Virus record (IMG/VR): IMGVR_UViG_3300033417_000007
From: an uncultured virus (IMG/VR IMGVR_UViG_3300033417_000007)
Lineage: Duplodnaviria > Heunggongvirae > Uroviricota > Caudoviricetes
Length of the DNA: 64,000 bases
Reading direction: 5' to 3' (one strand)
Position numbers and translations under genes: made by a program. Position 1 is the stretch's first letter. The number at the start of each line of letters is the position of its first letter. Below the pieces are notes generated by a model, which worked only from the letters and a program-made list of their open reading frames with translations, made no database searches and had not been told where the DNA came from. Positions 13,618 through 33,635 of this stretch are shown here, one piece after another.

Positions 13618-15075
13618 ATGCTGGCTGAAGAGGTCAAGACGGAGCGGCTCTTCCGCGGATACCGCGGAACATCCGACACCATCGACCGGATGCACAAGCT
13701 GGTCCAGCAGGCGAAGCTGGATCCGACGATGCATAGGATCGCGACCCTCATCCGACTGTCGGTTCCCCAGGATCCGCGGGGCTCCTCGAAGGAGACGGCC
13801 GACGCGATCTTCAACTGGGTGAAGAAGCACGGCTGCTTCCAGCGCGACCAGTTCCAGATCGAGCGGGTGGAGCATCCGATCAGCTCCATGCAGACGACGA
13901 TCAAGGCGCGCCAGAACGGCGTCGACACCAACGGCAAGCTCTTTGTCGGGGACTGCGACCAGTACGGGATCTGGGTCGCGGCGCTCGGGGGCATCCTCGG
14001 ATTCCAGTACGCCTTCGAGACCTCGAAAAGCGACCTCGAGCGTCCCGACGAGTTCTCGCACGTCTGGGCGGCGCTCCGCGTGGGCCCCGAATGGATCGCC
14101 TACGACGCCTCCACGCCGAGGTCCGAGCCCAACTGGAGGCCGCCGATCACGGGTCCCGACAAGTTCAAGCGGTGGCCCGAGAAGGAAATCGAACGGACGC
14201 TGTCCGGATTGGGGGACGCCGTGAAGGGTGATGTTCCGTTCATGGTACCGCGCGAGTACTTCGGCGCCGGCGACCCCGCCGGCGTCGACGACCCGATGAC
14301 GAGTCTCGAGCCAAACCCGGGCGAGATCGACATGCTCATTCCTCCGGAGCCGATGAATCCGGACGAGAACTTCGGTGACGACTACCCGCGCTTCTCGAAG
14401 GAAGAGGTCGAGGCGGCGTCCCACCGGATGAGCCTGATCACGAACACCGACACGGGCCCCCATTACGCCCCGGCCGGTCGGCCCTCCTACTTCAAGGTGC
14501 AGAAGCGGATGTACCCCAAGGGGTCGCTCTGGAACCGCCAGGAGGTCAGCCGTGTCGATCGGGCGACCGGCGAACCCTACTTCAAGGTTGATCCCTCGAC
14601 GGTACCGTCCGAGGAGGTCGAGGTCGGCATGGTCAGTCCCGTCACGGTCGTCGAGCGGGACGGCCGGCCGCATGTGGTTCGCCGGGACATTCGGAGCGAA
14701 CTCATCCTAAGGAGACCGAAGATGCACCCGGCAGGAATGGGCGCCACGATCCCGACGAGCGTCGCGATCGCAAGTGGAGTGACGGCGGCCGACGCGGGCG
14801 TGAAGGCCGTGACCGAGTCCAAGAGCGTCTGGGACACGATCTCGGACGTCTTCAAGAGCGTCGCTCCGGCTGCGGCGGACGTGCTTTCGGCGAAGTACGC
14901 GCCGAAGGTCGCGGACGCCACCAACCGCGTGGCCGGCGGTCAGGTGATCACCGCCCAGGCCTACATCCAGAAGCCCTGGTATCAGCAGACCTGGGTTTGG
15001 ATGGGCGCCGCGGTTGTCGCGGCCGGCTTCGGGGCGATGGTGATGCTCAAGCCCGCCAAGAGGCGTCGTCGGTAG
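13618..15075 (+). CDS. Transglutaminase-like (Cys-His-Asp) enzyme, putative virion maturation protease, with C-terminal membrane anchor
   Basis: GDCDQ, FSHVW and YDAS in the first ~190 aa; ends in a hydrophobic helix plus KPAKRRRR. Confidence 0.8.
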   Translation: MLAEEVKTERLFRGYRGTSDTIDRMHKLVQQAKLDPTMHRIATLIRLSVPQDPRGSSKETADAIFNWVKKHGCFQRDQFQIERVEHPISSMQTTIKARQNGVDTNGKLFVGDCDQYGIWVAALGGILGFQYAFETSKSDLERPDEFSHVWAALRVGPEWIAYDASTPRSEPNWRPPITGPDKFKRWPEKEIERTLSGLGDAVKGDVPFMVPREYFGAGDPAGVDDPMTSLEPNPGEIDMLIPPEPMNPDENFGDDYPRFSKEEVEAASHRMSLITNTDTGPHYAPAGRPSYFKVQKRMYPKGSLWNRQEVSRVDRATGEPYFKVDPSTVPSEEVEVGMVSPVTVVERDGRPHVVRRDIRSELILRRPKMHPAGMGATIPTSVAIASGVTAADAGVKAVTESKSVWDTISDVFKSVAPAAADVLSAKYAPKVADATNRVAGGQVITAQAYIQKPWYQQTWVWMGAAVVAAGFGAMVMLKPAKRRRR

Positions 15076-15078
15076 CCG

Positions 15079-15300
15079 ATGGACACGATCGTGGGACCTC
15101 TGACCGACCAACTCGTCGCGCGGATCCTTCCTCAGATGAAGGACATGGTCGCGCGCGCGGCGGAAGGCGCGGAGCCCACGATCCGCAAGGTGGTGATCGA
15201 GGAAGTGCTCCCGAAGTTCGGGGCCGCGACGGTGCTCGGGATGGTGGCCGGCGCGATCGGCGCGGCGGCTATCGGGTCCTGGTTCGCGACGAGGCGATAG
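15079..15300 (+). CDS. Small tail-anchored membrane protein
   Basis: C-terminal Gly/Ala hydrophobic helix followed by RR. Confidence 0.8.
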   Translation: MDTIVGPLTDQLVARILPQMKDMVARAAEGAEPTIRKVVIEEVLPKFGAATVLGMVAGAIGAAAIGSWFATRR

Positions 15301-17514
15301 ATGAAACTCGTGAAGGGGTCTGCGGCGGCGAAGGCGCACATGGCGCGCCTGCGCGCGATGGCGGGGAAGCGCCGCAAGGCGGTTCGCCCCGTGACCGGCG
15401 CCCCCAAGAGGAAGAACCCCTACTCCGTGACGGGGGAGTGGTTCGAGCCTGGGTTCGTCATCTGGGACACGCCGGTCCAGGCCGAGGCCTACAACGCCGT
15501 CCGCGTGCTCGCTGACAACGACATCCCCGCGCACGTCGAAGCGGCGCCGGGGGATCCGAAGAAGTTCGGAAGCTGGGTCTACAAGGTCCACATCGACCGT
15601 CCCGAGGACTCGACCACCCGGATGATCGCCGAAGGCGCGCTCAACCGGATCGCAAGCGAGTCGATCAAGGGGCGCATGATGGGCGAATGGTCGAGCATTC
15701 CGCGCCCTCGTGCGCCGCGGCGTGGCCGCCGGCGGGTGGCTCTCCCGAATCCCCGGCGCCCGAAGATCGACCCGATCGACCGCGCGATCGAGCAGGCCTA
15801 CTACAGGGTCGCGAGCGGCGTCCAGGTCTCGATCATGGACATCCCGAAGATCTTCCGCGACGCGAAGACCCTGCTCGCCGGAGGCCGGACCGACATCGAC
15901 CAGGTGCTTATCGAGGTCGTGAAGAGGTATCAGGTGGCCGGCACCGGCGGACGGATTCTCAACAACCCGCATGGCGCGCGCGGAGCCTACTTCATCATCG
16001 ATCCCGTGACGAACAGGATCCTCTGGATCGTCCGCGGGCATCCGATGCACTCGTTCAACAATTCGGTCAAGCTCGCCACCGAGGCCGCGGCGAAGCTCGG
16101 TCGCAATGTGGTTCACGTCGTCCACCCTTACGTACCTGCCGGCTTCAAGAAGGGGACGGAGGTGACGCCCATCTTCTACCACTACGGGTCCAACACCGTC
16201 ACGCCCGAGGGGAAGATGTTCAAGACGATCTACGACAACCCCCCGGCCTTCTTCTTGATCGACGCCCAGAACGGGAAGATTCTCGAGATCTTCAAGGGGC
16301 ATCCCGCAAAGACATTTAAGAAGTCGGTCGACATCGGGATGTTGGAGGCGGCGAGAACCGGTCGCCCCGTCATTCACGTCGTTCACCCGCGCGTCCCCGC
16401 CGGCTTCAGGGTCGGCCACGCCGTCTCGCCGATGTTCTACCACTACGGGGCGAACATCATTTACCCAGACGGTCGCATGGTGAAGCGGAACCCGAAGTTC
16501 AAGGCCCGCTTCACGGCTTCCGACGGTGTCGAGATGCGCACTGAGACGTTGTGGGCGCGCAGCGCCCTCAAGAAGGCCGATCGCATGACGCTCGACATGC
16601 CGGCGCAGTTCAGGGGGCCGCGCTCCGAGATCGAGGTCACGCGCTGCAACCCGCGCGGCTGCAAGAACCCGGGGCACCGGCACGCGCGGAAGAATCCGTC
16701 CGGCTGGTCGCCGATCGGACTGTTCACGTCGACCGAGGCGACGTCGGTGGCGGACCGTCTTCGCGCCGCCGGGATTCAGGTGCGCGCTTATGAGACGGTA
16801 CCAAACCACGTCACCCTCACGGTTCCGTCTTCCATGCGCCGCGCGGCCAGGGCACTCATCGCGCGCAAGAACCCGCTCATGCAGGTGGTGACGCTCAAGA
16901 ACCCGAAGCGCCCCCAAGCCTCTCGCTCTGTCCCGTTCGATGTTTACCTGGATGGAAAGAAGATCGACACGGTCTTCGCGGGACCGAAAAGCGATGCCGT
17001 TGCCGAAGAAGTTCGACTCTCTCTCATCAACCACGACGGCTACGATCCCAGGATCGTCGTTCGCCGGCGCGGCGGGAAGGCGGGGTCGCGACCCGTTCGA
17101 AAGAACCCGGTCGGAAAGATCCCGTTCCGCCACGGCCAGATCATCACGGTCGCGCAGGCGCTCGCCTGGGCCAAGCAGACCGGAAACACCTCGCTCGTCA
17201 AGCAGTGCGAGCAGGCGATCGCGCTTTGCAAGAAGGCGAACGGGCCGGCCCAGAAAGTCCGCTTCGATCTCGTGCAGATGGGCGACCCCAAGAAGATCGA
17301 GTCGGTGATGGCCGGTGTCGAGTACGGCCAGACCGACGAGACCGTCTACAAGCCGACCAAGGGCTCGAAGAAGGGTCAGCACCTCTACCGACATGAGTGG
17401 GGGGAGGGCAGCGGGAAGCGCAAGCCCGTGCCGCTCATCGCTCCGGTCGGTGGGAAGGCGCTCGTCATGCCGCTCGGAAGTCGGCAGACCGCCGGAGATT
17501 GGTTGAGAGGATAG
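15301..17514 (+). CDS. Basic modular protein punctuated by 11 Asn-Pro motifs; putative core polyprotein
   Basis: 737 aa; repeated (R/K)NP; internal duplication of about 85 aa. Confidence 0.85.
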   Translation: MKLVKGSAAAKAHMARLRAMAGKRRKAVRPVTGAPKRKNPYSVTGEWFEPGFVIWDTPVQAEAYNAVRVLADNDIPAHVEAAPGDPKKFGSWVYKVHIDRPEDSTTRMIAEGALNRIASESIKGRMMGEWSSIPRPRAPRRGRRRVALPNPRRPKIDPIDRAIEQAYYRVASGVQVSIMDIPKIFRDAKTLLAGGRTDIDQVLIEVVKRYQVAGTGGRILNNPHGARGAYFIIDPVTNRILWIVRGHPMHSFNNSVKLATEAAAKLGRNVVHVVHPYVPAGFKKGTEVTPIFYHYGSNTVTPEGKMFKTIYDNPPAFFLIDAQNGKILEIFKGHPAKTFKKSVDIGMLEAARTGRPVIHVVHPRVPAGFRVGHAVSPMFYHYGANIIYPDGRMVKRNPKFKARFTASDGVEMRTETLWARSALKKADRMTLDMPAQFRGPRSEIEVTRCNPRGCKNPGHRHARKNPSGWSPIGLFTSTEATSVADRLRAAGIQVRAYETVPNHVTLTVPSSMRRAARALIARKNPLMQVVTLKNPKRPQASRSVPFDVYLDGKKIDTVFAGPKSDAVAEEVRLSLINHDGYDPRIVVRRRGGKAGSRPVRKNPVGKIPFRHGQIITVAQALAWAKQTGNTSLVKQCEQAIALCKKANGPAQKVRFDLVQMGDPKKIESVMAGVEYGQTDETVYKPTKGSKKGQHLYRHEWGEGSGKRKPVPLIAPVGGKALVMPLGSRQTAGDWLRG
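15961..16494 (+). repeat. Tandem duplicated ~85-aa domain bounded by NP motifs
   Basis: AYFIID..GHP..HVVHPYVPAGF..FYHYGSN versus AFFLID..GHP..HVVHPRVPAGF..FYHYGAN. Confidence 0.9.
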
Positions 17515-17517
17515 CCC

Positions 17518-18600
17518 ATGATCGGAATGCTCACGTTCATCAATCCCCCCCGACGGAAGAAGGCGCGTGCGCGTCTGCGTCGGGGCCGGAGAGGAGTCGC
17601 CCGCGAGGGCAAGGAGGTCTCCATGGCACGGAAGAAGTCCGTGCGCCGTCGCGGACGGCGCCGTTTGGCGCGGCGTGCGCGCCCTGTCACTCATCGGCGT
17701 CGGCGCAGCGCGTCGCGTCGTCGGCGTTCCTCGGGTCGTCGGCGTCGGCGCTCCTCGGGGCGTCGTCGTCGGATGATGCTCATGAACCCGGCGCCCAAGC
17801 GGCGTCGGCGTCGGAACCCCCTCTTCCGGTCCACCCGGACCGGTCGGTACAAGGGAGGCCGTCCGGGCCGTCGGCTCCGTCGGATCCGGCGCGCTCCCTA
17901 CGGCTGGAAGAACCCCGGCCGTCGGCGCGGCGGTCGTCGGCGCTACCGGCGCAACCCCGGCGCGATGGCGCTGCGGCGTCGGGTGAGCCCGCTCAAGGAT
18001 CCCGTCTCGGCCATCATGAACGTCTTCAAGGAAGCGTTCTCGATGGAGACGCTCGAGGCGGCGCTCCAGTCCGGCATCGGCTTCGGCGGCACCCTGGCCG
18101 GCTCGAAGCTGGTGTACAACACGCTCGTTCCGGCCTTCAACACGCAGGTCGGTCGGGTGGCGTCGGGCTTCGCCGTCACCATCCTCGAGACGCTGGTCCT
18201 CGGCTGGCTCGGCGGTCCCAAGATCGGCGCGCGGGTCCTGACCGGCGGCGTGCTCGCCACGCTGTGGCAGGGCATTTCCGAGGCCGTCCGCGGGACGCCG
18301 GCGGCGCAGTGGATTCCGACCCTCGGGGAGGGCCCGGAGGATGCGGAGTTCCGGCAGGCCATCGAGGCCGAGGTGCTCCGTGAGCTGCGTGGCGGGGGCA
18401 TGGACATGTACCTCCCGCCGGCCGGGATCTCGTACCTCCCGGCGGCCGGGTCGTCCGCCTACCTCACCGGGCGCGAGTCCGACCGGCTCCTGGCGACGGG
18501 CGTCAATGCCTACCTGACCGAGCGCGAGCTCGCGAAGGTCACGGGCATGGGCGACTCCGACGGGGAGTTCGGCGGGGCCAGTGCTCCGGAGCAGTTCTAG
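17518..18600 (+). CDS. Protamine-like Arg-rich DNA-condensing protein fused to membrane helices
   Basis: N-terminal ~150 aa of poly-Arg runs with 5 NP motifs, then 2-3 hydrophobic helices; second in-frame start at 17623 with SD AAGGAGGT. Confidence 0.85.
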   Translation: MIGMLTFINPPRRKKARARLRRGRRGVAREGKEVSMARKKSVRRRGRRRLARRARPVTHRRRRSASRRRRSSGRRRRRSSGRRRRMMLMNPAPKRRRRRNPLFRSTRTGRYKGGRPGRRLRRIRRAPYGWKNPGRRRGGRRRYRRNPGAMALRRRVSPLKDPVSAIMNVFKEAFSMETLEAALQSGIGFGGTLAGSKLVYNTLVPAFNTQVGRVASGFAVTILETLVLGWLGGPKIGARVLTGGVLATLWQGISEAVRGTPAAQWIPTLGEGPEDAEFRQAIEAEVLRELRGGGMDMYLPPAGISYLPAAGSSAYLTGRESDRLLATGVNAYLTERELAKVTGMGDSDGEFGGASAPEQF

Positions 18601-18756: not shown

Positions 18757-19392
18757 ATGCCTCCCAACCCGATGGTGCCCATGCCCCCGCAGGCGACGCA
18801 GCCCTACTTCCGGATCCAGAAGGGCCTGCCCGCCGCCGTCGTCCGCTCGTACAAGCAGCCCTTGTACGACAGCGAGATCATGCTCGCGACGGACGAGGAC
18901 GCCGAGCTCGTTCTCTTCCAGAAGCCCATCGGCCAGAACCTGGCCGACGGGACGACCCGCAAGACGCTGCTGCACACGAACATGAACAATGCCGGGCAGC
19001 TGGGAACCCCCCAGAGCTTCGACGTGTTCGGGTTCAACCTGCGGCTGCTCGAGGCGTCCGAGAAGGTCGTGACGATCGCGAACTTCAACCTGATCGAGGC
19101 GGCCGGCGTCGCGATCGTGATCTTCGGGACGGACAACCCGTTCCTGCAGGTCCCGATCGAGGACATCCCGTCGGGCGTCGACACCGAGGGCCTGGGCGCG
19201 ACGGACGCGCCGCACATCGGCCTCGGCGAGAGCTCGAACTTCTACCGGTTCGACGTCGGCGGTCGGGCGCTGCACATCAACTCGACCGAGTCGTTCCAGG
19301 TGAAGCTGTCCTTCCCCTCGGGCCTGGAAGGCGTGACGGGCAACCACCTCTTCCGCTTCTACATGCGGGGGATCCTCTACCGGGGCGTCTAG
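18757..19392 (+). CDS. Putative major capsid protein, single jelly-roll type
   Basis: 211 aa with alternating beta-strand pattern (KQPLYD, LFQKPIGQ, TNMNNAGQL, FQVKLSF, FRFYMRGILY); flanked by structured RNA; fold inferred, not computed. Confidence 0.65.
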   Translation: MPPNPMVPMPPQATQPYFRIQKGLPAAVVRSYKQPLYDSEIMLATDEDAELVLFQKPIGQNLADGTTRKTLLHTNMNNAGQLGTPQSFDVFGFNLRLLEASEKVVTIANFNLIEAAGVAIVIFGTDNPFLQVPIEDIPSGVDTEGLGATDAPHIGLGESSNFYRFDVGGRALHINSTESFQVKLSFPSGLEGVTGNHLFRFYMRGILYRGV

Positions 19393-19510
19393 GCCCTGCC
19401 GAGGTGCAACTTCGGGCGCTCCCCTTCGGGGGAGCGCCACTTGATGCACGGCGGTCGGGCCCCGGCGGTGTGCCGGGGCGCTTTCCCTGCAGAGTCGGCT
19501 CGGAAAGGAG
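19393..19510 (+). promoter_or_regulatory. Structured RNA element downstream of the capsid gene
   Basis: Perfect 10-bp GGCGCTCCCC-TTCG-GGGGAGCGCC hairpin inside GTGCA/TGCAC, then GCCCCGGC/GCCGGGGC; no T-run. Confidence 0.65.
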
Positions 19511-19516
19511 CAGCGT

Positions 19517-20437
19517 ATGTCCTGGGCGCAGGTTCCCACGCTCAAGCGCAGGCCTGACGGAACGGTCTTCGTCAATCCCGAGAAGGACTACATCAGGCCG
19601 TTCGAGCTGTCCCCTGACAAGCCCAACAAGGTGGTGACGCTTGCGGCCAACCAGACGGTGGGGCCGTTCCCGCTCACCGCCAAGCACGACGGGCCGATCG
19701 AGTGCTTCTTCCAGAAGGTCGTGGTGTACGACGAGGAAGACATTCCGCTCACGGACTACAACATCGACTTCGTGCTGCAGTTCCCCACGAAGCGCAAGAT
19801 CATGTCGAACCTGCCGATCCCGCTGATCGCCTGCGCGGGGGATGCGGGGCGTCCCTACGTGCTGCCCGAGTCGATCTTCATCCCGGCGATCTCGGCGCTG
19901 CAGATCACCTTCTACAACCGGGACGCCTCCATCCGGAAGGTCGAGTTCGTGATGGGCGGCATCAAGTACTACATCAACTCCGCCCCCCAGGCCCCCCGCG
20001 CGGAGCTCGCAAGCTACCAGCAGCGCCGGGAAGCGACCTACACGTACTGGCTGACGACCGACGAACTGCCCATCCTGACGGCCAGCGAGACGGGCGCGGA
20101 CTTCTTCCTCACGATCCCCGACGACACCGACATGGAAGTCCTCAAGCTCTCCGCGGAGGCGACGGGGGCCTTCCGGGCGCTCATCAAGGACGCCGAGAGC
20201 GACCGCGCCGTCACCAACGGCGAGGCGATGCACTGCTCACTCCTCTTCGGCGGCCACGTCGCGACGGCCCTCGGGGGCGGCCTCGGCGGGTCCGGCGGCG
20301 TCTTCCCGGCCCGGTGGGCGACGTCGTACCTCGCGCGCCGGAGCGCCAAGATCCAGGTGCTCCTCGACGACCTCTCCGGATCGACGAACACGATCAAGCT
20401 CGTGTTCGGCGGGAGGAAGATCGCGTATGCCTCGTAA
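19517..20437 (+). CDS. Putative capsid protein with two tandem jelly-roll-like domains
   Basis: Two ~130-aa halves ending VEFVMGGIKYY and IKLVFGGRKIAY. Confidence 0.65.
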   Translation: MSWAQVPTLKRRPDGTVFVNPEKDYIRPFELSPDKPNKVVTLAANQTVGPFPLTAKHDGPIECFFQKVVVYDEEDIPLTDYNIDFVLQFPTKRKIMSNLPIPLIACAGDAGRPYVLPESIFIPAISALQITFYNRDASIRKVEFVMGGIKYYINSAPQAPRAELASYQQRREATYTYWLTTDELPILTASETGADFFLTIPDDTDMEVLKLSAEATGAFRALIKDAESDRAVTNGEAMHCSLLFGGHVATALGGGLGGSGGVFPARWATSYLARRSAKIQVLLDDLSGSTNTIKLVFGGRKIAYAS

Positions 20438-21176
20438 GCCGAGAACCGACTCCAGGGGAAACTCCGTTCCTCCCGGCCGCGGGCCCGGGGGCATGGGGAA
20501 TCCTTACGAAGATCGCTACTTCTACGAGGGCTATCGCGATTTCAATCGGGAGCCCAGGATCGACGACGTCATCATCGGTCCGACCTGCTCGCCGGGCGCC
20601 GCGAACCCCGAGCTCAAGAGCCGGATGGAGGCGCTCAAGTGCACCTTGAACGACGTCTTCGCCCGGCAGGTGGTCTTCACGAAGTTTCCGGCGAACTCCC
20701 AGCCTCCCTGGTTCGCCAAACCCATCATCAAATGCAAGAACATCACGATCGCGTCGGGCGGAACGGGGGTGATCTTCGACCGCGAGATCCCCGGGCGCAA
20801 CCGCGCGATCCTGACGTGCCTCGGGATCGATATCGATCCGGTGGGGGCGATCCTCGCGCAGACCTGTGAGTTCTGGTTCGACCTGGGGAACCAGGAGGAG
20901 ATCGTCGACATCTTCGACGACCAGACCGAGACGGCCTACGAGGAGGTCGATGGTCTGACGTCCGGGAAGACGACGGTCCTGCCGGGGTCGCTCGTCGTGC
21001 CGTTCAACTTCCTGGAAGCGGGCCTCCAGTTCATGATCAAGGGTCCCAAGATGCTCAGGTTCATGATGGAGAACAAGGGGCTCGAGGCCGTCACCATCCG
21101 CGGAATGATGGGGTACTACCAGTACCCGCTGCCGTATGGGGCGACCGAGTTCGAAAACGCCGACGTGATGCTCTAA
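20427..21176 (+). CDS. Putative minor capsid/penton protein, jelly-roll-like
   Basis: Beta-rich C-terminal domain ending TIRGMMGYYQYP; GGMG near the N-terminus. Confidence 0.55.
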   Translation: MPRKPRTDSRGNSVPPGRGPGGMGNPYEDRYFYEGYRDFNREPRIDDVIIGPTCSPGAANPELKSRMEALKCTLNDVFARQVVFTKFPANSQPPWFAKPIIKCKNITIASGGTGVIFDREIPGRNRAILTCLGIDIDPVGAILAQTCEFWFDLGNQEEIVDIFDDQTETAYEEVDGLTSGKTTVLPGSLVVPFNFLEAGLQFMIKGPKMLRFMMENKGLEAVTIRGMMGYYQYPLPYGATEFENADVML

Positions 21177-21186
21177 GAGGTGGACG

Positions 21187-21549
21187 ATGGCTTCCCCTTC
21201 GAGTCCTGGGATCATCACGGTCAAGAGCGTCGATGCGAGCGGAAACAATCCGGTTGTCCAGACGGACTCCTGGGCGAGTACGCAAAAAAGCGTCGTCACT
21301 CCCGGCGCCGCGGTGCAGTGTCCGTCGCTTGAGGCGCCCGCCGGCATGGGGATTGTCTTCTTGGCGAAGCCCGGGAACACCGGGGAGATCTACCTCGGGA
21401 ACTCAAAGGCGAACGCCGAGAACGCGGCCGTGCGGGTCGAGCTCGGAGCCTCCAACGCAGTCATCCTGAAGGTGTCGAACGCCAACCTCGTCTGGGTGGA
21501 TGCCGAGACCGCGAACGAAGGGATCTGCATCTTCGTCGAGCAGTCGTAG
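21187..21549 (+). CDS. Small beta-sandwich virion protein
   Basis: AKPGNTGEIYLG, beta-rich; GAGGTGG SD. Confidence 0.65.
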   Translation: MASPSSPGIITVKSVDASGNNPVVQTDSWASTQKSVVTPGAAVQCPSLEAPAGMGIVFLAKPGNTGEIYLGNSKANAENAAVRVELGASNAVILKVSNANLVWVDAETANEGICIFVEQS

Positions 21550-21567
21550 CCTATAAAGTAGGGTGAG

Positions 21568-22671
21568 ATGGCCGAATACCGTGGCGGTGGAGGTCTTGGC
21601 GGAGAGGTCGTAGCCTCCATCACGGTCCAAAATCTGACCCCCGACCGCCTGGTCTACGCCGACGCTACGAAGAAACTCCAGAGCGTCGATCCACTCACCT
21701 CCTGGGTCGCCGGTACAAGCGATCAGGTGACCGTCGCCGACGACGGGGACGGGACCATCACGATCAGCCTGCCGAGCGCGATCATCACGCCTGGGACGCT
21801 CACGGTGACAGGGCACACGACGCCGCAAGCCAACAATACTTACGATCTGGGCGGCAGCAGTTTCGCATGGCGCAACCTGTACGTGGGGACGCAGATCCTC
21901 GCGGCGAATGGGAGCGCGGGGGCGCCGAGTCTCTCCTTTTCCGGGGATCCGGATACCGGGTGGTTCTCCAACGGAACGAACATCATTACCGTCTCCACCG
22001 GCGGGACAGGGAGGTGGACATTCAATGGCTCCGGGCACATGTTGGCTGGCTCCAACAATGTCTACGACATCGGCGCCAGCGGCGCGAACAGTCCGCGGTC
22101 GGTGTATGTGGTGACGAGTCTATTCATCGGTCCCAAAGAGTCTGGAGTAATTTCCCCGCAACTCGGCCTCTATCATGCGGGGCAGCCTGTTTTCGTGGTG
22201 AGAGAAACCGGCAGCAACATCGAGCTAGCTCTTTTCTGCACTACCGCAAACTGCTACGTGAGTGCGGCGACACCGAATGATCTCATCTTTAGGACCTCCA
22301 ACACGGATCGATGGAGGATCGTAAATTCTGAAGTCGGCTTGTGGGCTGGCGCTTCTACCCGGACGATTACCGGCGGTGTCTCGGACGGTTACGTCTCGGG
22401 TGTCCGGCTCTCACCGACGTACGACGCGGCCACCGCGCAGACGGTCACGCGGCACAACTACATCGACGTCGAAGACGTCCTCCTGACCGGCGCGGGCCCG
22501 GCGGCCGTGACCGACGCCTGTGTGTTCCGCTTCAACGCGGCGGCGGGAACGCACAAGGCCCTTGCCGGGGCGAGCACGAAGACGACGCCGGGCGCCTGGG
22601 ATGCGGCGGTCAAGATCAATGTGAATGGGACAATCATGTACATCCCCGCCTATACGAGTCCGACCGCATGA
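21568..22671 (+). CDS. Fibre/spike-like virion protein
   Basis: Gly/Ser/Thr-rich; NTYDLG/NVYDIG repeats; GSAGAPSLSFSGDPDTG fibre motif. Confidence 0.75.
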   Translation: MAEYRGGGGLGGEVVASITVQNLTPDRLVYADATKKLQSVDPLTSWVAGTSDQVTVADDGDGTITISLPSAIITPGTLTVTGHTTPQANNTYDLGGSSFAWRNLYVGTQILAANGSAGAPSLSFSGDPDTGWFSNGTNIITVSTGGTGRWTFNGSGHMLAGSNNVYDIGASGANSPRSVYVVTSLFIGPKESGVISPQLGLYHAGQPVFVVRETGSNIELALFCTTANCYVSAATPNDLIFRTSNTDRWRIVNSEVGLWAGASTRTITGGVSDGYVSGVRLSPTYDAATAQTVTRHNYIDVEDVLLTGAGPAAVTDACVFRFNAAAGTHKALAGASTKTTPGAWDAAVKINVNGTIMYIPAYTSPTA

Positions 22672-23246
22672 GCACGAGAACTCTCACCCTCCTCCTCCTG
22701 GCCGTAGTGGTGCTCCCGGCGTGCGGGGATAGCTGGCCCGGTTACCCCGGGGTTCCGACGTCGCTGACCACTCCCGCGGGGAAGGCTTACACATTCCGGA
22801 ACCTCGGGTCGGTCGAGCGGTACGGTGAGGCATGGATCGGCGGCTGGGTGGACATTGCCATCGAAGAGGCTGTCGCAAAGATGGTCGGCCTTGGAGTCTC
22901 AGAAGCAAACGCTAGGCATGCGATAGGGTCCATCGGCCTAACTGCCATCGACGACTACGCCTACCCGGAGAGAGCGAGCCCCACCGGCTGGGCGGCGGGC
23001 ACGTATGCATACGGGCACATTGTCGTCGCCTTTTGGACGAGGAAGATTTCCCGCACCTTGGATGACGACATCCCGGAGTGGACCTATCGGGATGACGAGC
23101 CCAAAGGCCCGCGGTGGGGTGTTGTCCCGCTGGCTTGCCCCGCGCTGGGGCATGAGTTGGGGCATCATTTCTTTGGGGGTGGGTTTGAACACCGGCGTCG
23201 TTGGGTACTGGTTTTAGCGCCGGAGTCGGCGGTGGGTGCCCCGTAA
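22668..23246 (+). CDS. Lipoprotein with HExxH zinc-metallopeptidase motif
   Basis: MSTRTLTLLLLAVVVLPA-C lipobox; GHELGHH; ATGA overlap with the upstream gene. Confidence 0.7.
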   Translation: MSTRTLTLLLLAVVVLPACGDSWPGYPGVPTSLTTPAGKAYTFRNLGSVERYGEAWIGGWVDIAIEEAVAKMVGLGVSEANARHAIGSIGLTAIDDYAYPERASPTGWAAGTYAYGHIVVAFWTRKISRTLDDDIPEWTYRDDEPKGPRWGVVPLACPALGHELGHHFFGGGFEHRRRWVLVLAPESAVGAP

Positions 23247-23259
23247 AAGGAGAATAAGC

Positions 23260-23685
23260 ATGGCGATTAAGTACAAAGTCCTCCGGATGGGTGACCGCAG
23301 CGACCGCGGCCCGGGCGGCGAGTTCGGTATCGTGGTGGTCGGCGAGAACGGCGACAAGGCTACCGGGGAAACCGTATACTGCCTGAACGATCACAGGCAC
23401 TCGAAAGCCTGCGCCCAGGCGGCGCTCGACGCCAAGACCATCGTTGTGAAGGCGGCGGAGCCTGCGGTGGATGAGGCGCTGAACGACGACGGGACCGTGC
23501 GCGTTCCGGGCAAGGCGGAAGTGCCTGCGGTGATGGAGTCGCCCCGGGAGCGCATCCAGAAGTGGCACGCCGCACAGCGGGCTGAAGTCGCGCCCGACAT
23601 GGAGCCGCTCCCCAAGGTGGAGCGTGAAGTGGTGCGCGACGGCAAGCGGGTCAGGGAGATGGTGGAGAATCGGGATCTGTCATAA
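23260..23685 (+). CDS. Hypothetical protein
   Basis: AAGGAG SD; protein-like composition. Confidence 0.7.
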   Translation: MAIKYKVLRMGDRSDRGPGGEFGIVVVGENGDKATGETVYCLNDHRHSKACAQAALDAKTIVVKAAEPAVDEALNDDGTVRVPGKAEVPAVMESPRERIQKWHAAQRAEVAPDMEPLPKVEREVVRDGKRVREMVENRDLS

Positions 23686-23699
23686 AAAGGAGATGGAAG

Positions 23700-24239
23700 G
23701 TGAGCGACAAGCACGCGGTGACGTTCAAGGCGACCATGACGCGCGACCAGTGGCGCACCATGAACATCCGCGCCGAGACCATCAACCCTCCCCATCGGTC
23801 GGGGCTTCGCTGGCTCTCGGCGCTTTCGGCGGAGACCTTCGACGTGGCTGAGGTGACGGTGGACACCTCGTCCGGAAGGATACTCGCGAAGCCGTGGACG
23901 GAGCCCAAGGTCGGAACGGACCGCCTCACGCTCGACCTCAGCCGCGACGCAACGCTTGGCCTGAAGGTGCTCGCGATCAAGATGATCTTGGGCACGCCGG
24001 GCCCGCGGGGGGAGCCTGCCCAGCCCGCGACGCTCCTTGAGCGCCGGAACATCTTCGACGCGCTCGAGGGGGTGGCCGACGGGAAGGTGCTGCGCCTGGT
24101 CAAGAAAGAAGCGCAACTCCCCGAAAGCGACGACCTCGACGAGGACGTTCTGGACGACGAGGAAGCTGAGGAATCTCTCGACACCCCGGAAGTTCCGAAG
24201 GGTGAAGCCAAGAAGGCGTCCGAGGAACCTGGGAAGTAA
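23700..24239 (+). CDS. Hypothetical protein with acidic tail
   Basis: AAGGAG SD; co-directional with neighbours. Confidence 0.75.
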   Translation: MSDKHAVTFKATMTRDQWRTMNIRAETINPPHRSGLRWLSALSAETFDVAEVTVDTSSGRILAKPWTEPKVGTDRLTLDLSRDATLGLKVLAIKMILGTPGPRGEPAQPATLLERRNIFDALEGVADGKVLRLVKKEAQLPESDDLDEDVLDDEEAEESLDTPEVPKGEAKKASEEPGK

Positions 24240-24259
24240 GTCGAGTAGGTGAATGGCAA

Positions 24260-24625
24260 ATGGCTGGATACCAGGGTGGCGGCGGGGGCGGTGCGGGAGC
24301 GGCTCCGTCCCTTACCTGGTCGTTCCCCGGAACCATCTCGACGGACCAGAATCCGAACATTCCGCGCTACCAGTTCAAGGTCGCGTCCTCCTTCGGTAAC
24401 TGGGATGTGAAGTCCGTCTCGGCCCCGTCCGGAGGCGACATGACGGTGACCTTCAAGAAGAACGGTGCGACGATCGCGACGGTCGTCCTTCTTGACGGCG
24501 ACACCTATGCGACGGTAGCCGCGGCGGTCAGCTTCGCCGTGGACGACGTCCTTTATCCGGAGATCTCGTCGCTCGGGGGGGCGAGCTCCCCTCCGACGAC
24601 CCTGCTCATGAGAGCGAGGGCGTAG
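24260..24625 (+). CDS. Beta-rich virion protein
   Basis: Gly-rich N-terminus resembling that of 21568 (MAxYxGGGG), then a beta-sandwich pattern. Confidence 0.7.
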   Translation: MAGYQGGGGGGAGAAPSLTWSFPGTISTDQNPNIPRYQFKVASSFGNWDVKSVSAPSGGDMTVTFKKNGATIATVVLLDGDTYATVAAAVSFAVDDVLYPEISSLGGASSPPTTLLMRARA

Positions 24626-25425
24626 TGGCTCTGCCCGCTTACTTCCAGCAGACGCCGTTCTTCCTGGGAGTCACAGGCGTCTCCGACGTCCAGCAGGTCA
24701 TCGACGCGATCAAGGGTGTCTCCGGTGTGGCGCTCGCCGGATGGACGAACCCCTCCGGCGACATCGTTCGCACGCCGGTCAACTCCGTGGGGCAGTACAT
24801 CCAGGTCGAGCTCACGCGCGGCTCGGCGACGACGCTGACCTCCATCATGCGGGACGACTTGGGCGTCGCCACCGTCGCCACGTCGTTCGTCATCTCCGGA
24901 ACCGTGACCGTCGATATTTATTTCGGGGTCGGGTATCTGTACTTCGAGGGAACGTCCGGAACCAATTTCAACCTGTTCTCCCTCCTGGCTCTTGCGCCCG
25001 AAGCGCAGAATGCGCACCGTGCCTATGCGTTCGCCATGTCGAACAACTCGAACACCCAGACGGGATGCGCCTTCAACCTGAGTACCGGCGCCTACGACGC
25101 CGTATTCGCCGGGTTCGGGCGTATCCAGCAGTTCGTGGCCCGAGAGTACGCCGCGGCGCAGCCGGCGATCTGCCAGACGCCGTCCGGCTACCGCAGGTGG
25201 TATCCCATGATCATCTGCTGCGTGAATGGGGCGAACACCTTCATGGTCATGGCGGGTCGCGTTCCGAACTTCATCCTCATCAACGGAGGGATCGTTAATC
25301 CGGGCGATCGCTTCGTGATCCCGATCGACGAGGCGACGACCGCCGAGTTCGTCGTGCTGAAGATCGCGAGCGCGGGGACGACCGTAACGAATCCTCCGGC
25401 CCGTATCGCATGTAGGGTGCCTTGA
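24625..25425 (+). CDS. Putative spike/vertex protein
   Basis: Beta-rich; N- and C-termini resemble the next ORF (GVSDVQQVIDAI vs GVTDWATVVTAI; IACRVP vs LGIRVA). Confidence 0.7.
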   Translation: MALPAYFQQTPFFLGVTGVSDVQQVIDAIKGVSGVALAGWTNPSGDIVRTPVNSVGQYIQVELTRGSATTLTSIMRDDLGVATVATSFVISGTVTVDIYFGVGYLYFEGTSGTNFNLFSLLALAPEAQNAHRAYAFAMSNNSNTQTGCAFNLSTGAYDAVFAGFGRIQQFVAREYAAAQPAICQTPSGYRRWYPMIICCVNGANTFMVMAGRVPNFILINGGIVNPGDRFVIPIDEATTAEFVVLKIASAGTTVTNPPARIACRVP

Positions 25426-26258
25426 TGAGCGTTCCGAGCTTCGTCGACACCGACTTCGTGGTCACCGAGCTGCTCGGGGTCACCGACTGGGCGACGGTGG
25501 TGACGGCCATCGACACCGTTCTCACGTCCGACCTTCCGGTGGCCTCCCGATGGACGTCGCTGGGGGGAGGTGAGTACGAGTCCCCTCACCAGGACTCCGC
25601 CGGCGTCAATCGGTTCTTCGGTGTCGTCGTGACGAGGATCTCGGCGACCCGCTTCGAGCTTGCCGTGAAGGACAAGTTCGGGACGACGTTCCATACCGGG
25701 ACGATCGATCTGGGGTCCCCGGCCGCCGTCAAGATCTATGCGGGGCCCTATCACTTCGCCGTCCAGTCCATCTATGCGGGACCCACGCGCGAGGTGGCCT
25801 ACGCCTTCATGACGGACCCGGCCCCCTTCGGCCTGGGCCAGAGCAGTACCTTCGTCTACGCCTGGACCAAGAGGAATTCCGCCGGGACTCTCTATGGCAC
25901 CGCGAACCAGTTCGGCGCGGGAGCCTTGGTCGCGAGTGATCAGGGAGGAACCACGCCGCGGTCCAGGTCGCTCCTCTACTATATGAACGGCATCGGCCTG
26001 ACCAATGCCGGAGATCCGTCGGGCTATTCGGCGGCCGGATCCACCCTGGCGATGCCCTACGAGATCTCGACGTCGTTCGCGGCGGCCAACCAGAAATGGG
26101 CTGGCCGCGGGTATCAGCTCGTCGTCCTGCCGTCGAACCTGACGTTCGGGACTGTCGTCACGGTCCCGCTCGATACGGGGGTCTCCGGGGACTTTGAGGT
26201 GCTCGGCATCAATCAGCCCTCCAATGGGATCGGTTCACTGGGCATCCGGGTGGCCTGA
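25422..26258 (+). CDS. Putative spike/vertex protein, likely paralogue of 24625-25425
   Basis: Similar length and termini (VIPIDEATTAEFVVL vs TVPLDTGVSGDFEVL). Confidence 0.7.
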   Translation: MMSVPSFVDTDFVVTELLGVTDWATVVTAIDTVLTSDLPVASRWTSLGGGEYESPHQDSAGVNRFFGVVVTRISATRFELAVKDKFGTTFHTGTIDLGSPAAVKIYAGPYHFAVQSIYAGPTREVAYAFMTDPAPFGLGQSSTFVYAWTKRNSAGTLYGTANQFGAGALVASDQGGTTPRSRSLLYYMNGIGLTNAGDPSGYSAAGSTLAMPYEISTSFAAANQKWAGRGYQLVVLPSNLTFGTVVTVPLDTGVSGDFEVLGINQPSNGIGSLGIRVA

Positions 26259-27673
26259 TGTCGACCGTTCTTGAGGTCGAGTTCCGAGGTGGCGGCAAGC
26301 AGTGGTTCGAGTGGAAGCCGCGTTACCTGAACTTCCTCGGGGTTCTCTTCGACAACCCTCCGGACGGGTTCATCAACGGCGACGGGGGCACGAACGGGAC
26401 GATATCGTTCCTGACAGACGCCATCGGCGCGCTCCAGAACAGCTGGCTGCGGGTGCCGATCTACCGGCGCAACGGTTCCGTCGGTCCCGTCAGCGTGTCC
26501 TACTCGTTCGAGGACATCACCGCAGTCAACGGCGTGGACTACGTCGGGGTGGACGGCTCCTTCTTCTGGGATGACGGGGACTTCCGGGTCGTCTACATCC
26601 CCGTCAGCATCGAGGACGTGGAGGCGAACAAGACCTTTCGGATCCGCCTGTCGGATCCGACGGGAGGCGCTGTTCTCGATCCGGCTCTCGACGAGGTCGT
26701 CGTCACGATCGAGCTGGTCCCGGGATCCCGAGGGATCATCGGGTTCATCGACAGGGTCCAGTACACCAAGCACACGACGACCTTCGTCGCGACCATCTAC
26801 CGGTTCAACGGGTCCGTCGGCGCGGTGTCCATCGATTACGCGACGGAAGACGGCTCGGGCGTCGCGGGGGTCGACTACACGGCGGCGTCCGGCACGCTTA
26901 ACTGGGCCGACGGCGACCAGGCGCTGAAGACCGTGAACATCACGATCCTCAGTCCGGCCGCCGACAAGGACTTCTTCCTGCGACTGCAAGACGCGACCGG
27001 AGGCGCGGGGATCCTCGAGTCCAACAATCCTCTTGAGATCAACATCTTCGGGTCCACCGCGGACGCGAATGCCGGGGAGTTCGGCTTCGACGTGATCTCG
27101 GCGCAGGTGGGGGAGAGCCAGAACCTGACCGTCACGGTGAAGCGCCTGAACGGTAAGACGGGTGCCGTCTCCGTGAACTATGCGACGGCCGACGGTACGG
27201 CGGCGGCCGGGACCAACTACACGAACACCTCCGGCACGCTTAACTGGGCCGACCAGGACGATGCCGACCAGACCTTCGTCGTGCCGATCTTGACGGTCGG
27301 ATTTCCGGCGTTCTTCACGGTCGGCCTCGACACACCAGGGGGAGGCGCCACGGTCCAGGAGGACCGCGGAACGCAGACCGTCACCATCCTCGACAGCGCG
27401 ACGGCCAATCCGGAAGTTCCGCTTTCGGATATCGTGGTCGGCGACATGTTCTACACGATCGGGGAGACGGTGGTCGATACCCCGATGGCCTATAAGAACG
27501 TGAACATCCATCCGCTGCTCTGGACGGCGCTCGACGGGGGTGTCGCCGGTTGGGATGGGGGGTCCTCGAACTTCGGGGGGTCGACGGATCTCGCGAACGA
27601 CGACGGCGACCTGGCCGCGTCGATGCCGCTTCGGTTCCAGATGTACGAGCAGGTGGAGGGGGTTGCCGAATGA
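26258..27673 (+). CDS. Protein with three Calx-beta domains; candidate receptor-binding spike
   Basis: Three RxNG..G.VSV.Y.T.DG.A.AG.DY...SGTL.W.DGD-type repeats. Confidence 0.9.
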   Translation: MSTVLEVEFRGGGKQWFEWKPRYLNFLGVLFDNPPDGFINGDGGTNGTISFLTDAIGALQNSWLRVPIYRRNGSVGPVSVSYSFEDITAVNGVDYVGVDGSFFWDDGDFRVVYIPVSIEDVEANKTFRIRLSDPTGGAVLDPALDEVVVTIELVPGSRGIIGFIDRVQYTKHTTTFVATIYRFNGSVGAVSIDYATEDGSGVAGVDYTAASGTLNWADGDQALKTVNITILSPAADKDFFLRLQDATGGAGILESNNPLEINIFGSTADANAGEFGFDVISAQVGESQNLTVTVKRLNGKTGAVSVNYATADGTAAAGTNYTNTSGTLNWADQDDADQTFVVPILTVGFPAFFTVGLDTPGGGATVQEDRGTQTVTILDSATANPEVPLSDIVVGDMFYTIGETVVDTPMAYKNVNIHPLLWTALDGGVAGWDGGSSNFGGSTDLANDDGDLAASMPLRFQMYEQVEGVAE

Positions 27674-32336: not shown

Positions 32337-33635
32337 ATGGCGCCCGCGATCGACAGCCTCCGGGCCGTGCCGGAGATGGCCGTGCGGCTCCTCTGCGGCG
32401 CTTCGGTGAAGAAGTCCGGGGAGTCGGTCGTCGTCTCGTTCCAGGGCGAAGCCTTTGAGTGTCCGCTTACGGTATTCAACTACGCCTGCCAGATCGCGAA
32501 GATCCTCTCGATCGACCCCTCGCCTGTCCAGACGATGAACGACGTCCTGCGGCTGCGGCACAGGGCCGAAGACCACTTCGTGCAGATGTTCACGCTTGGA
32601 GACAAGAAGCTCCCGAAGGTGCTTTTCCTGCCGGCCGGCGAGATCGCGAGCGCCTTCTACCGGGCGCGCTTGCCGGCCGACATCCTGACTGACCAGGGGC
32701 GCCACGTTGCCCACTTCACCGAGCGGATCGACGCCATGAAGGTCCTCTACTACGAGGTGCTGTGGGTGCAGCTGGCCTGCGCGCCGATGCTTCAGAGCAT
32801 GGTCGGCCGCGTGAAGGAGGCGGGCGTCAAGATCATCTACGATGTGGACGACCGCTTCGACGTCATCCCCGACGAGAATCCCGCCGCGAAGATCTACGTC
32901 GAGCAGAAGCTCCAGTCCGTCTGGTCGATGATCAAGATGGCCGACGCGGTCTCGGTGAGCACCGAACCGCTCGCCGCACACATCCGGAAGTTCCATCCGA
33001 ACGTCCACGTCATCCCGAACGAGGTGACCGCCGCGATTCATCCGACCCGAGAGCGCAAGCCCAAGGACTTCGTCAGGATCCTCTGGGCCGGAAGCTACAC
33101 CCACAAGCGCGACCTGCGCGTGATGGCGCCGGGACTCAAGAAGGTGCTTGAGCGTCATGCCGGGAAGGTCCGCTTCACCTGCTTCGGGGACGTCCCGCCC
33201 GAGGCGCTCCACGGGGTGGAGCAGTACGTCGACCGGTTGCCCTTCGTCGGCTTCGTCGACTACGCAGAGGCCCTTGCGGGCGTGGACGCGGACATCGCGG
33301 TCGCGCCTCTTGAGGCGAGCGAGTTCAACGCCTCAAAAAGCGCCGTCAAGTACCTCGAGTACTCCGGGTGCAAGTACCCGTCGCTCCTGTCGCCCGTGGG
33401 CGAGTATACGGGACTTCCGAAAGGCGCTCCCCTTATCCATGTGAATGACGGGGAGTGGGAGAAGGCCCTCGAGTACGCGATTGGAAGCCCGTCCGAGATG
33501 GCGGCGCTCGGGGATCGCGCGAACGAGTGGGTTTCGTCCAACCGGTGCATCATCAAGTCCGGCGCTCGGAAGTGGGGGGAGCTTGTGGACGGTATCCTGT
33601 CGAACTCAAAAAAGGCCACGGAGGTGATCTCGTGA
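32337..33635 (+). CDS. GT-B (GT4-like) glycosyltransferase
   Basis: YRARLP, IIYDVDD, VSVSTEPLA, VIPN, WAGSYTH, FNASKSAVKYLEYS. Confidence 0.88.
   Translation: MAPAIDSLRAVPEMAVRLLCGASVKKSGESVVVSFQGEAFECPLTVFNYACQIAKILSIDPSPVQTMNDVLRLRHRAEDHFVQMFTLGDKKLPKVLFLPAGEIASAFYRARLPADILTDQGRHVAHFTERIDAMKVLYYEVLWVQLACAPMLQSMVGRVKEAGVKIIYDVDDRFDVIPDENPAAKIYVEQKLQSVWSMIKMADAVSVSTEPLAAHIRKFHPNVHVIPNEVTAAIHPTRERKPKDFVRILWAGSYTHKRDLRVMAPGLKKVLERHAGKVRFTCFGDVPPEALHGVEQYVDRLPFVGFVDYAEALAGVDADIAVAPLEASEFNASKSAVKYLEYSGCKYPSLLSPVGEYTGLPKGAPLIHVNDGEWEKALEYAIGSPSEMAALGDRANEWVSSNRCIIKSGARKWGELVDGILSNSKKATEVIS

Follow-up and report, generated by a model that had tools for sequence, protein, structure and literature searches.

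Viral proteins that are modular or polyvalent are a known kind, and so are viral polyproteins that undergo processing. The adenovirus precursors pVII and pX/mu are cut by the adenovirus cysteine protease, and pp220/pp62 of African swine fever virus (ASFV) by pS273R; the internal proteins of T4 and the inner body of phiKZ are head-internal proteins processed by the prohead protease. A head-internal protein system with this kind of processing is described for SPN3US in the accessible part of PMC10052503. For polyvalent proteins, the accessible part of the paper by Iyer, Burroughs, Anand, de Souza and Aravind (2017; PMC5512222) suggests that they are packaged, are delivered along with the DNA and are then processed into units that function separately. 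Scission between Asn and Pro has precedents as well, in FlhB/YscU (N|PTH) and reovirus mu1 as far as the accessible part of PMC3207474 goes, and in RsgI as far as that of PMC10328401 goes. Here, we compare these systems with a locus in a 64,000-nucleotide stretch of DNA from an uncultured virus (IMG/VR record IMGVR_UViG_3300033417_000007), which was analysed over its whole length and is called the window below. At this locus, a basic protein of 737 amino acids (aa) is built from small exchangeable modules, or cassettes, the edges of which are marked by the dipeptide Asn-Pro (NP), hereafter the seam.

This seam grammar is new: in the main texts of the full-text literature we found no account of Asn-Pro seams in modular phage proteins, nor of this virus group. 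Our reading, held tentatively, is that x-N-P may be a recognised processing seam, at which a packaged cassette protein would undergo maturation cleavage.

Asn-Pro in the cassette protein and its relatives

The cassette protein, encoded by the open reading frame (ORF) at 15301-17514 on the + strand, contains 26 Asn and 57 Pro, from which 2.0 NP are expected and 11 are observed; none of 20,000 shuffles of its residues got to 11. An earlier note on this DNA had counted, by hand, 11 of about 26 Asn as NP, and the exact recount is 11 of 26. The Asn in question are residues 39, 150, 222, 313, 397, 450, 456, 465, 524, 534 and 602, with the contexts KRKNP, LPNP, LNNP, YDNP, KRNP, RCNP, CKNP, RKNP, RKNP, LKNP and RKNP in this order, so that the contexts listed in the earlier note (KRKNP, KRNP, RKNP three times, LKNP and CKNP) are all found again. 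The note also held that NP mostly follows a basic residue. This is true of the 737-aa protein, where K or R precedes 7 of the 11 sites, and it is a habit of the window's close relatives; it does not belong to the core motif, given that in the wider family the residue at -1 can be K, R, S, A or N.

Relatives were gathered by a word-indexed search, which gave eight, from IMG/VR contigs of 21-72 kb, which gave six more distant ones, and from a contig of a metagenome-assembled genome (MAG), which gave one. In addition, a profile of the C-terminal 137 residues (A6) was run against 1.84 billion representatives. It matched 73 proteins of 133-1248 aa, and in 73 of 73 the match extends to at most 7 residues from the C-terminus. 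The family set used below counts 82 proteins, 76 from the searches plus six translations of the loci, possibly partly redundant. In these 82 proteins, we found 815 NP against 122 expected (6.7-fold), amounting to 42% of all Asn. No dipeptide is more enriched, the second being DW (3.1-fold), and the reverse dipeptide PN is not enriched at all (106 against 122). NP reaches at least three times its expectation in 80 of the 82, the exceptions being a 133-aa and a 318-aa protein; its conservation across homologues is thus borne out.

By comparing 767 distinct NP contexts with 984 contexts of other Asn, we found a small or hydrophobic residue at position -3 in 59% and 38%, respectively, and positions -2 and -1 of the NP contexts are rich in K/R and poor in D/E. 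The sole fixed part of x-N-P is therefore Asn-Pro itself, with a weak preference for small or hydrophobic residues at -3, R/K/L at -2 and K/R/S/A at -1. The 2A-like ribosome-skipping consensus D(V/I)ExNPG|P does not describe these sites: NPGP accounts for 3 of the 815 NP of the family and for none in the window protein.

The remaining 72 ORFs of the window served as a control: together they hold 39 NP against 21.2 expected (1.8-fold), and a basic residue before NP is rare among them. The earlier note had pointed to NP near the ends of ORFs 34124, 35247 and 43644; these dipeptides are present and are indistinguishable from this background. Separately, eight proteins of the structural block (18757-27673, + strand) each carry NP within their first 42 residues, at aa 4, 20, 25, 21, 29, 31, 42 and 33, and N20-P21 of the 306-aa protein is invariant across seven sequences.

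Codon choice at the seams was considered on its own. AAT encodes 63 of 126 NP Asn and 25 of 203 Asn elsewhere, and a rare-codon pause at seams was rejected as an explanation, this being a general codon-pair habit. The same bias is seen in other genes, with AAT at 28 of 69 NP Asn in the loci (other Asn: 97 of 737) and at 18 of 37 in the window (other Asn: 48 of 326). Over all genes, AAT makes up about 40-50% of Asn codons before Pro and about 13-15% of the others, a genome-wide codon-pair bias that avoids AAC-CCN. A DNA word was rejected too: at the seams, synonymous codons replace one another (AAC/AAT; CCG/CCC/CCT/CCA) with no change of the dipeptide.

Seams and module edges

BLAST block ends were collected among 15 relatives (nine from the word-indexed search and six loci), and those at most 3 aa from a protein terminus were dropped. 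Of the 716 that remained, 37% have an NP no more than 2 aa away, as do 6.5% of random positions, and the median distance to NP is 4.5 aa against 20.5 aa.

An AlphaFold2 (AF2) model agrees with this picture. Its input was an alignment of 62 of the 82 proteins, from which 18 short or weakly matching ones and the locus translations L002 and L003 were left out. The mean predicted local distance difference test score (pLDDT) is 69 and the predicted template modelling score (pTM) 0.31, which in a predicted structure is the signature of beads on a string. At least eight domains are modelled; all 11 NP are placed in coil between them, and no modelled domain of the 737-aa protein spans an NP. Seven of the 11 are inside segments with pLDDT below 50 and two more at most 2 aa away, compared with 27% of residues below 50 overall (p about 0.01, binomial calculated by hand). 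Since 3-13 aa separate each NP from the next structural element, NP is not simply a helix cap. The parts of the protein, all on the + strand, are as follows.

15301..17514, +: modular basic protein, 737 aa, net charge +64 (ORF and NP statistics)
15301..15414, +: N-terminal basic helix, aa 1-38, net charge +13 (AF2 helix 8-28, charge)
15415..15420, +: seam NP 39-40 (KRKNP), in pLDDT<50 segment 28-50
15421..15747, +: module D1, aa 41-149, modelled as ferredoxin-like beta-alpha-beta-beta-alpha (AF2; VIA Z about 7 to generic ferredoxin-like folds)
15748..15753, +: seam NP 150-151, at the end of pLDDT<50 segment 123-152
15754..15963, +: module D2, aa 152-221, modelled as a three-helix bundle (AF2 pLDDT about 94)
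15964..15969, +: seam NP 222-223, invariant in alignment A1, in pLDDT<50 segment 214-225
15970..16236, +: module D3, aa 224-312, modelled as alpha/beta, repeat copy 1 (AF2 pLDDT above 90; 51% identical to D4)
16237..16242, +: seam NP 313-314, between the repeat copies, in pLDDT<50 segment 312-315
16243..16488, +: module D4, aa 315-396, repeat copy 2 (AF2 and repeat comparison)
16489..16494, +: seam NP 397-398 (KRNP), in pLDDT<50 segment 393-448
16495..16647, +: module D5, aa 399-449, modelled as disordered (AF2)
16645..16698, +: Cys/His knuckle RCNPRGCKNPGHRHARKNP, aa 449-466, with three NP (NP statistics, alignment)
16699..16869, +: module D6, aa 467-523, with a modelled fold like the ring-building motif of type III secretion systems (AF2 pLDDT 87-91)
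16870..16905, +: double seam with hydrophobic spacer, NP-LMQVVTLK-NP, aa 524-535 (N534 and P535 invariant in A1)
16906..17103, +: module D7, aa 536-601, modelled as beta-beta-alpha-beta (AF2)
17104..17109, +: seam NP 602-603, leading into the constant domain (conservation of N602 and P603 in alignment A7 at least 90%)
17110..17511, +: constant C-terminal domain, aa 604-737 (A6 profile; AF2 pLDDT 79-94)

Modules are transposed among relatives, with the edges of the transposed parts 1-8 aa from an NP. D1 (aa 37-144) recurs at aa 371-480 of P0002 with 63% identity, D5 together with the knuckle at aa 298-375 of the same protein with 65% identity, and D2 at aa 509-576 of P0008. D2 also stands free as P0079, a 71-aa protein without any NP on a 1.1-kb contig, so that at least one cassette lives as a separate gene too. 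D3 and D4 are 51% identical over 80 aa (E = 4e-31), and this tandem repeat of about 85 aa is bounded and split by NP just where the earlier note had put it (NNP at 15961, DNP at 16234, KRNP at 16483). The note had placed NP at the edges of small exchangeable domains. Homologue block ends, transposed modules and modelled linkers uphold this: compared among related genomes, module order varies and NP is conserved, and none of the predicted domains runs across an NP.

By cutting the 82 proteins at NP, we obtained 897 pieces of bimodal length, namely spacers of 5-15 aa and modules of 40-150 aa. Such lengths resemble those of processed viral polyproteins with spacer peptides. Pieces of at least 20 aa fall into 180 clusters, 123 of which are singletons, and 93% of the 577 modules of at least 40 aa are net positive. 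Three spacers recur: NP-LLQTVxLA-NP in 68 of the 82 proteins, the Cys/His knuckle C-NP-xxC-x-NP-GHRH in 21, and VRKNIFTFN-NP. The knuckle may bind zinc. The 737-aa protein and its homologues also have the N-terminus MKLxKGSxxAKAxMAxLRAM in common, and the ATG of the cassette gene abuts the stop codon of the upstream ORF, with GAGG 7-10 nt before it. Wherever a locus has a complete copy (six loci: L001, L002, L004-L007), the gene forms one single ORF, L003 ending at a contig edge.

The modules themselves are nearly unannotated. Pfam gave no family for the window protein and none above cut-off for ten relatives. Among 67 other relatives, nine had a match, with only Kyano_Gp96 (twice) and DUF5771 (once) above cut-off and DUF5419, DUF6496 and DnaJ Cys-rich below it; the families matched are small phage or virus proteins of unknown function. 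The sole PHROG family in the protein is PHROG 6353, of unknown function, in D7 (aa 542-588, E = 7e-8). Foldseek with the whole 737-aa model found nothing in PDB or BFVD at E <= 0.001, and VIA-align wide with the whole model, a search that barely tests the other domains, returned only generic small alpha/beta folds for D1 and D6. D6 matches PrgK/EscJ by VIA with Z 9.2 and a root-mean-square deviation of 1.2-1.4 A over 55 aa; the matched range of the model, 468-522, falls between NP 465 and NP 524. Because the folds of D1 and D6 are common and small, they are uninformative about function. The constant C-terminal domain has no match in Pfam, PDB or BFVD, the fold search having been made with the whole-protein model.

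The Arg-rich protein and a candidate enzyme

Two neighbours of the cassette gene bear on how the seams may be read, and a small membrane protein lies between one of them and the cassette gene.

17518..18600, +: protein of 360 aa with Arg-rich head, hydrophobic middle and acidic tail (ORF, relatives)
17518..17997, +: Arg-rich head, aa 1-160, with 71 K+R and 2 D+E; NP at 17542, 17785, 17815, 17911 and 17953
13618..15075, +: transglutaminase-like Cys-His-Asp protein, 485 aa, with C-terminal membrane helix and RRRR tail (alignment A2, Atlas)
15079..15300, +: 73-aa protein with C-terminal membrane helix, directly upstream of the cassette gene (conserved in L001, L002, L005 and L006)

The Arg-rich ORF has 9 Asn and 5 NP against 0.5 expected (shuffle p = 5e-5). 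As the earlier note had stated, all five Asn in the first 160 residues are followed by Pro. In each of the seven loci checked, the homologous head has 5-7 NP where 0.4-0.8 would be expected, and their places are conserved; the NPVVVANP of the head resembles the NP-flanked hydrophobic spacer of the cassette protein. The hydrophobic middle is conserved, and the C-terminal 200 aa are 41-48% identical across six viral loci. Inside the gene, AAGGAGG-N6-ATG occurs at 17623 and the matching GKE..M residues are kept in all relatives, which suggests that the Arg-rich protein may be made in two nested sizes via an internal start.

Regarding the 485-aa protein, C113, H148 and D163 are invariant in the six sequences of alignment A2, and Atlas places aa 1-190 with Transglut_core clusters (template modelling score, TM, 0.8 by row). 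A homologue is found upstream on the same strand in all six loci that cover the region. By this conserved triad and position, the protein is a candidate processing enzyme.

Processing or structural joint

The excess of NP, its place at module edges, its recurrence in the Arg-rich head, the upstream preference, the bimodal piece lengths, the conserved Cys-His-Asp gene and the precedents of Asn-Pro scission all speak for x-N-P as a processing seam, and three further points bear on this reading. First, an invariant dipeptide in linkers that are otherwise variable and disordered argues for a recognised short motif, and no passive spacer. Second, 10-20 NP copies per chain sit at every cassette edge, which favours a cut site. 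Third, the net positive charge of nearly all modules fits a protein living beside DNA. From these we infer the following scheme. About ten small, independently folding basic domains on disordered basic linkers, closed by the constant C-terminal domain, would make up one chain in an uncultured, probably tailless bacterial virus with a jelly-roll capsid. Cutting at x-N-P would turn the cassette chain into separate basic mini-proteins, and the same cut in the Arg-rich head would yield protamine-like peptides retained with the DNA in the particle. The best candidate for the enzyme is the transglutaminase-like (papain-fold) Cys-His-Asp protein, anchored in the membrane and encoded two genes upstream. 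The chain would be carried into the particle by its constant C-terminal domain, and the modules may have roles after entry.

Several points weigh against this scheme. The block-end and context statistics use related sequences, hence non-independent events. Three NP lie inside the 18-aa Cys/His knuckle; a cut there would break up a likely metal site, and these NP may only be turns. Most proteases act poorly on sites with Pro at P1'. The window's other proteins do not avoid NP, which is in excess among them as given above, and no gene is split at a seam among the checked loci with a complete gene. As for the enzyme, Pfam Transglut_core is matched in only one of the six members of the 485-aa family (E = 0.12) and a PDB profile search with the family gave 0 matches; transglutaminase-like domains can also be cell-wall hydrolases or cross-linkers; and the membrane helix with its basic tail may put the catalytic domain across the membrane from DNA-bound substrates.

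A bolder form of the scheme, in which x-N-P would be an Asn-directed cut code of an undescribed, motorless, tailless jelly-roll lineage, the mini-proteins and peptides would condense the genome and enter the cell, and the gene would serve as a plug-in arsenal rack, seems to us rather unlikely.

Almost as likely as cleavage is that the chain stays uncut. It would then be one flexible polycationic chain, for example one that coats or organises DNA, with NP as a structural joint that starts a turn, blocks secondary structure between modules, spares Asn from deamidation and marks harmless points of exchange. Asn at position i with Pro at i+1 is the classic start of a type I turn, and Asn-Pro is barred from the usual succinimide deamidation. 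The coil position of every NP in the model, the structural look of NP in the knuckle, the single ORF at every checked locus with a complete gene and the mild excess of NP in the window's other genes are all consistent with such a joint. However, disordered linkers rarely hold an invariant dipeptide while their surroundings change, and NP lies too far from the next structural element to cap it. Moreover, the size of the excess, the share of Asn involved and the upstream preference exceed turn propensity, and NP recurs in the Arg-rich head, where there are no domains to insulate.

A recognition that does not involve proteolysis is less likely still. Here, x-N-P and the spacer NPLLQTVxLANP would dock to the capsid interior, the membrane or DNA, or else the seam Asn would be the acyl donor for Lys-Asn cross-links made by the transglutaminase-like enzyme. 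Docking could make use of the hydrophobic, strand-like spacer that NP flanks in most of the family and of its counterpart in the Arg-rich head, although no docking partner was identified and docking alone needs no 10-20 sites per chain exactly at cassette edges. Cross-linking would fit the neighbouring enzyme and the Lys that often adjoins the seam Asn, and Lys-Asn isopeptide bonds do exist in HK97 capsids and Gram-positive pili; to our knowledge, however, known transglutaminases use Gln, not Asn.

Self-cleavage, in which cyclisation of the Asn side chain would break Asn-Pro either slowly and spontaneously in the particle or in response to the particle interior or to entry, is improbable. The N|P bond is scissile in FlhB/YscU and reovirus mu1 (PMC3207474) and in RsgI (PMC10328401), and the accessible parts of these sources count several viral capsid proteins among such lyases. 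The known lyases nevertheless cut in cis, within folded domains that supply an acidic residue (PMC3207474, accessible part), for which reason we rate self-cleavage low. Here, NP lies in disordered, acid-poor linkers between unrelated folds, NPTH makes up 0 of the 815 NP, and Pfam gave no match to lyase families. Lastly, it is hardly credible that composition, codon usage or a word read at the DNA level, for recombination or methylation for instance, produced the pattern without any meaning for the protein. AAGAACCC does occur 8 times on the + strand and 0 times on the - strand of the window, 6 of the 8 in the cassette and Arg-rich genes, and NP Asn takes the rare AAT far more often than other Asn, but the residue shuffles rule out composition and PN is unenriched.

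A two-residue seam that bounds hundreds of swappable domains would be a simple, testable rule for parsing a nearly unannotated virus lineage, cutting the sequences at NP giving the working units of these proteins. If the seams are cut, this would be either a protease specificity not described before or Asn chemistry put to a new use, and a bacterial-virus counterpart of core maturation in adenovirus or ASFV. Were the modules to enter along with the DNA, the gene would be a catalogue of unexplored early-acting small proteins.

Gene neighbourhood and virus type

The order of genes is the same in all loci that cover the region: a 629-aa coiled-coil protein, a 95-aa protein, the 485-aa protein, the 73-aa membrane protein, the cassette protein and the Arg-rich protein, followed by proteins of 211, 306 and 249 aa that are well conserved and have a very high G+C content at third codon positions (GC3). 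Two of the latter are probable capsid proteins.

18757..19392, +: structural protein of 211 aa, conserved in six viral loci at 62-65% identity, GC3 0.97, probable capsid protein
19517..20437, +: protein of 306 aa, on weak evidence a probable jelly-roll capsid protein (AF2, Foldseek, Atlas)

For the 306-aa protein, the AF2 model has a pLDDT of only 51. The top Foldseek matches of this model are double jelly-roll capsid proteins, namely those of SGIV (an iridovirus), phiCjT23, PBCV-1, PM2 (P2) and PRD1 (P3), at E about 1e-3 and TM 0.32-0.38, and in Atlas the nearest Pfam-bearing cluster is P2_N/P2_C at 0.76. A double jelly-roll capsid protein is thus a lead that the model offers. PDB profile searches with the 211-aa and 306-aa families gave nothing meaningful.

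Pfam and PHROG revealed no terminase, portal or HK97-type capsid gene in the window. Likewise, the window showed no Walker-A packaging ATPase, and in the structural block there was neither a Walker A motif nor a Pfam or PHROG match to an ATPase, about 1.9 kb of the 65,919-base contig being outside the window. These absences suggest a large tailless virus that perhaps packs its DNA without a motor. Genomes of this virus group measure 44-72 kb, and prokaryotic double jelly-roll viruses are reported at 7-18 kb in the accessible part of a 2018 survey (PMC5894146). A genome of 44-72 kb with jelly-roll leads, membrane and Arg-rich core proteins and no detected packaging ATPase is an unusual setting.

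The host can be guessed at only from faint traces. By tblastn, GenBank phages gave no match to the C-terminal domain or to the 306-aa protein, and GTDB genomes contain no relative of the C-terminal domain. Among the 185,579 species genomes of GTDB there was one match to the capsid gene, on a 14.4-kb contig (L007) in a MAG of Thermoanaerobaculia (Acidobacteriota); the gene order on this contig is unchanged and its seamed protein has 1041 aa with 13 NP. The binning of this contig is a weak host hint. At 42730-43356 (- strand) of the window there is a DUF1570 match below cut-off (E = 9e-4). DUF1570 is presumably a Planctomycetes-type domain and as such would be a faint host hint that conflicts with Thermoanaerobaculia.

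Elsewhere, the window has genes for helicases, a primase, a single-stranded DNA-binding protein and an integrase, and several membrane proteins in the structural block. At least five glycosyltransferase genes (GT2, GT4/GT1 and GT9-like) and a methyltransferase gene, unusual at such a virus size, lie at 46207-46809, 53405-55387, 56360-57097 and 59831-61711 (- strand) and at 32337-33635 (+ strand). Two adjacent paralogues (24625-25425 and 25422-26258, + strand), duplicated also in L001 and L004, are directly followed by a protein with three Calx-beta domains (26258-27673, + strand); the paralogue pair and the Calx-beta protein are probably spike or host-recognition proteins.

Comparison with described systems

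Asparagine peptide lyases (FlhB/YscU, family N6; reovirus mu1, N7; RsgI) share with the cassette protein a conserved Asn-Pro as a functional mark, and the accessible parts of PMC3207474 and PMC10328401 include several viral particle proteins that mature by a cut between Asn and Pro. They differ in having a single in-cis site in a folded catalytic context, whereas here 10-20 sites per chain lie in disordered linkers. Such a folded context was not found around the seams, acidic residues being depleted at -1 and -2, and no sequence match to the lyase families was found with Pfam.

With the head-internal proteins of large tailed phages, the proposed likeness is in proteins that are packaged alongside the DNA, cleaved at a short consensus site and then ejected into the host cell. 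The sites of the phage proteins, however, end in Glu, not in the Asn-Pro of x-N-P. They are encoded by separate genes and not as cassette chains, and their protease is a serine prohead protease of the herpesvirus assemblin type; no such protease was found in the window, nor any gene for a portal or an HK97-type capsid. The structural block also gave no FtsK/HerA-type packaging ATPase beside the capsid gene, a trait of PRD1/PM2-like viruses.

Polyvalent proteins, as presented in the accessible part of PMC5512222, are similar in architecture. They too have many (2-15) unrelated small domains per chain, are mosaic between relatives, and have genes that adjoin those for virion structural proteins. 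In contrast, their hallmark domains (zincin-like metallopeptidase, MuF, ArdC-N, methylase-helicase, LPD) were not found here by Pfam in the window protein and 77 relatives, no tailed-phage genes were detected in the window, and here a constant C-terminal domain ends every chain. A word search in the accessible text of that paper gave no linker motif or Asn-Pro seam.

In their logic, the core precursors of adenovirus (pVII, pX/mu) and ASFV (pp220/pp62) resemble what cleavage at x-N-P would imply. The differences are several: their sites are (M/I/L)-x-G-G|x or G-G|x, not x-N-P; the candidate enzyme here is transglutaminase-like and membrane-anchored, not of the adenain/Ulp1 type (clan CE), for which Pfam and PHROG gave no match in the window; and the modules here are swappable cassettes instead of fixed structural proteins. 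On the other side, both are basic DNA-associated precursors with a repeated short site in a jelly-roll virus, a likeness that here rests on a low-confidence model of the capsid protein, and in both a papain-fold cysteine enzyme is encoded by the virus, here a putative one nearby. Cutting would give Arg-rich peptides in both. As in adenovirus, the repeated site is present in more than one basic precursor, occurring in the 737-aa protein and in the Arg-rich head, and it is conserved in the relatives of both.

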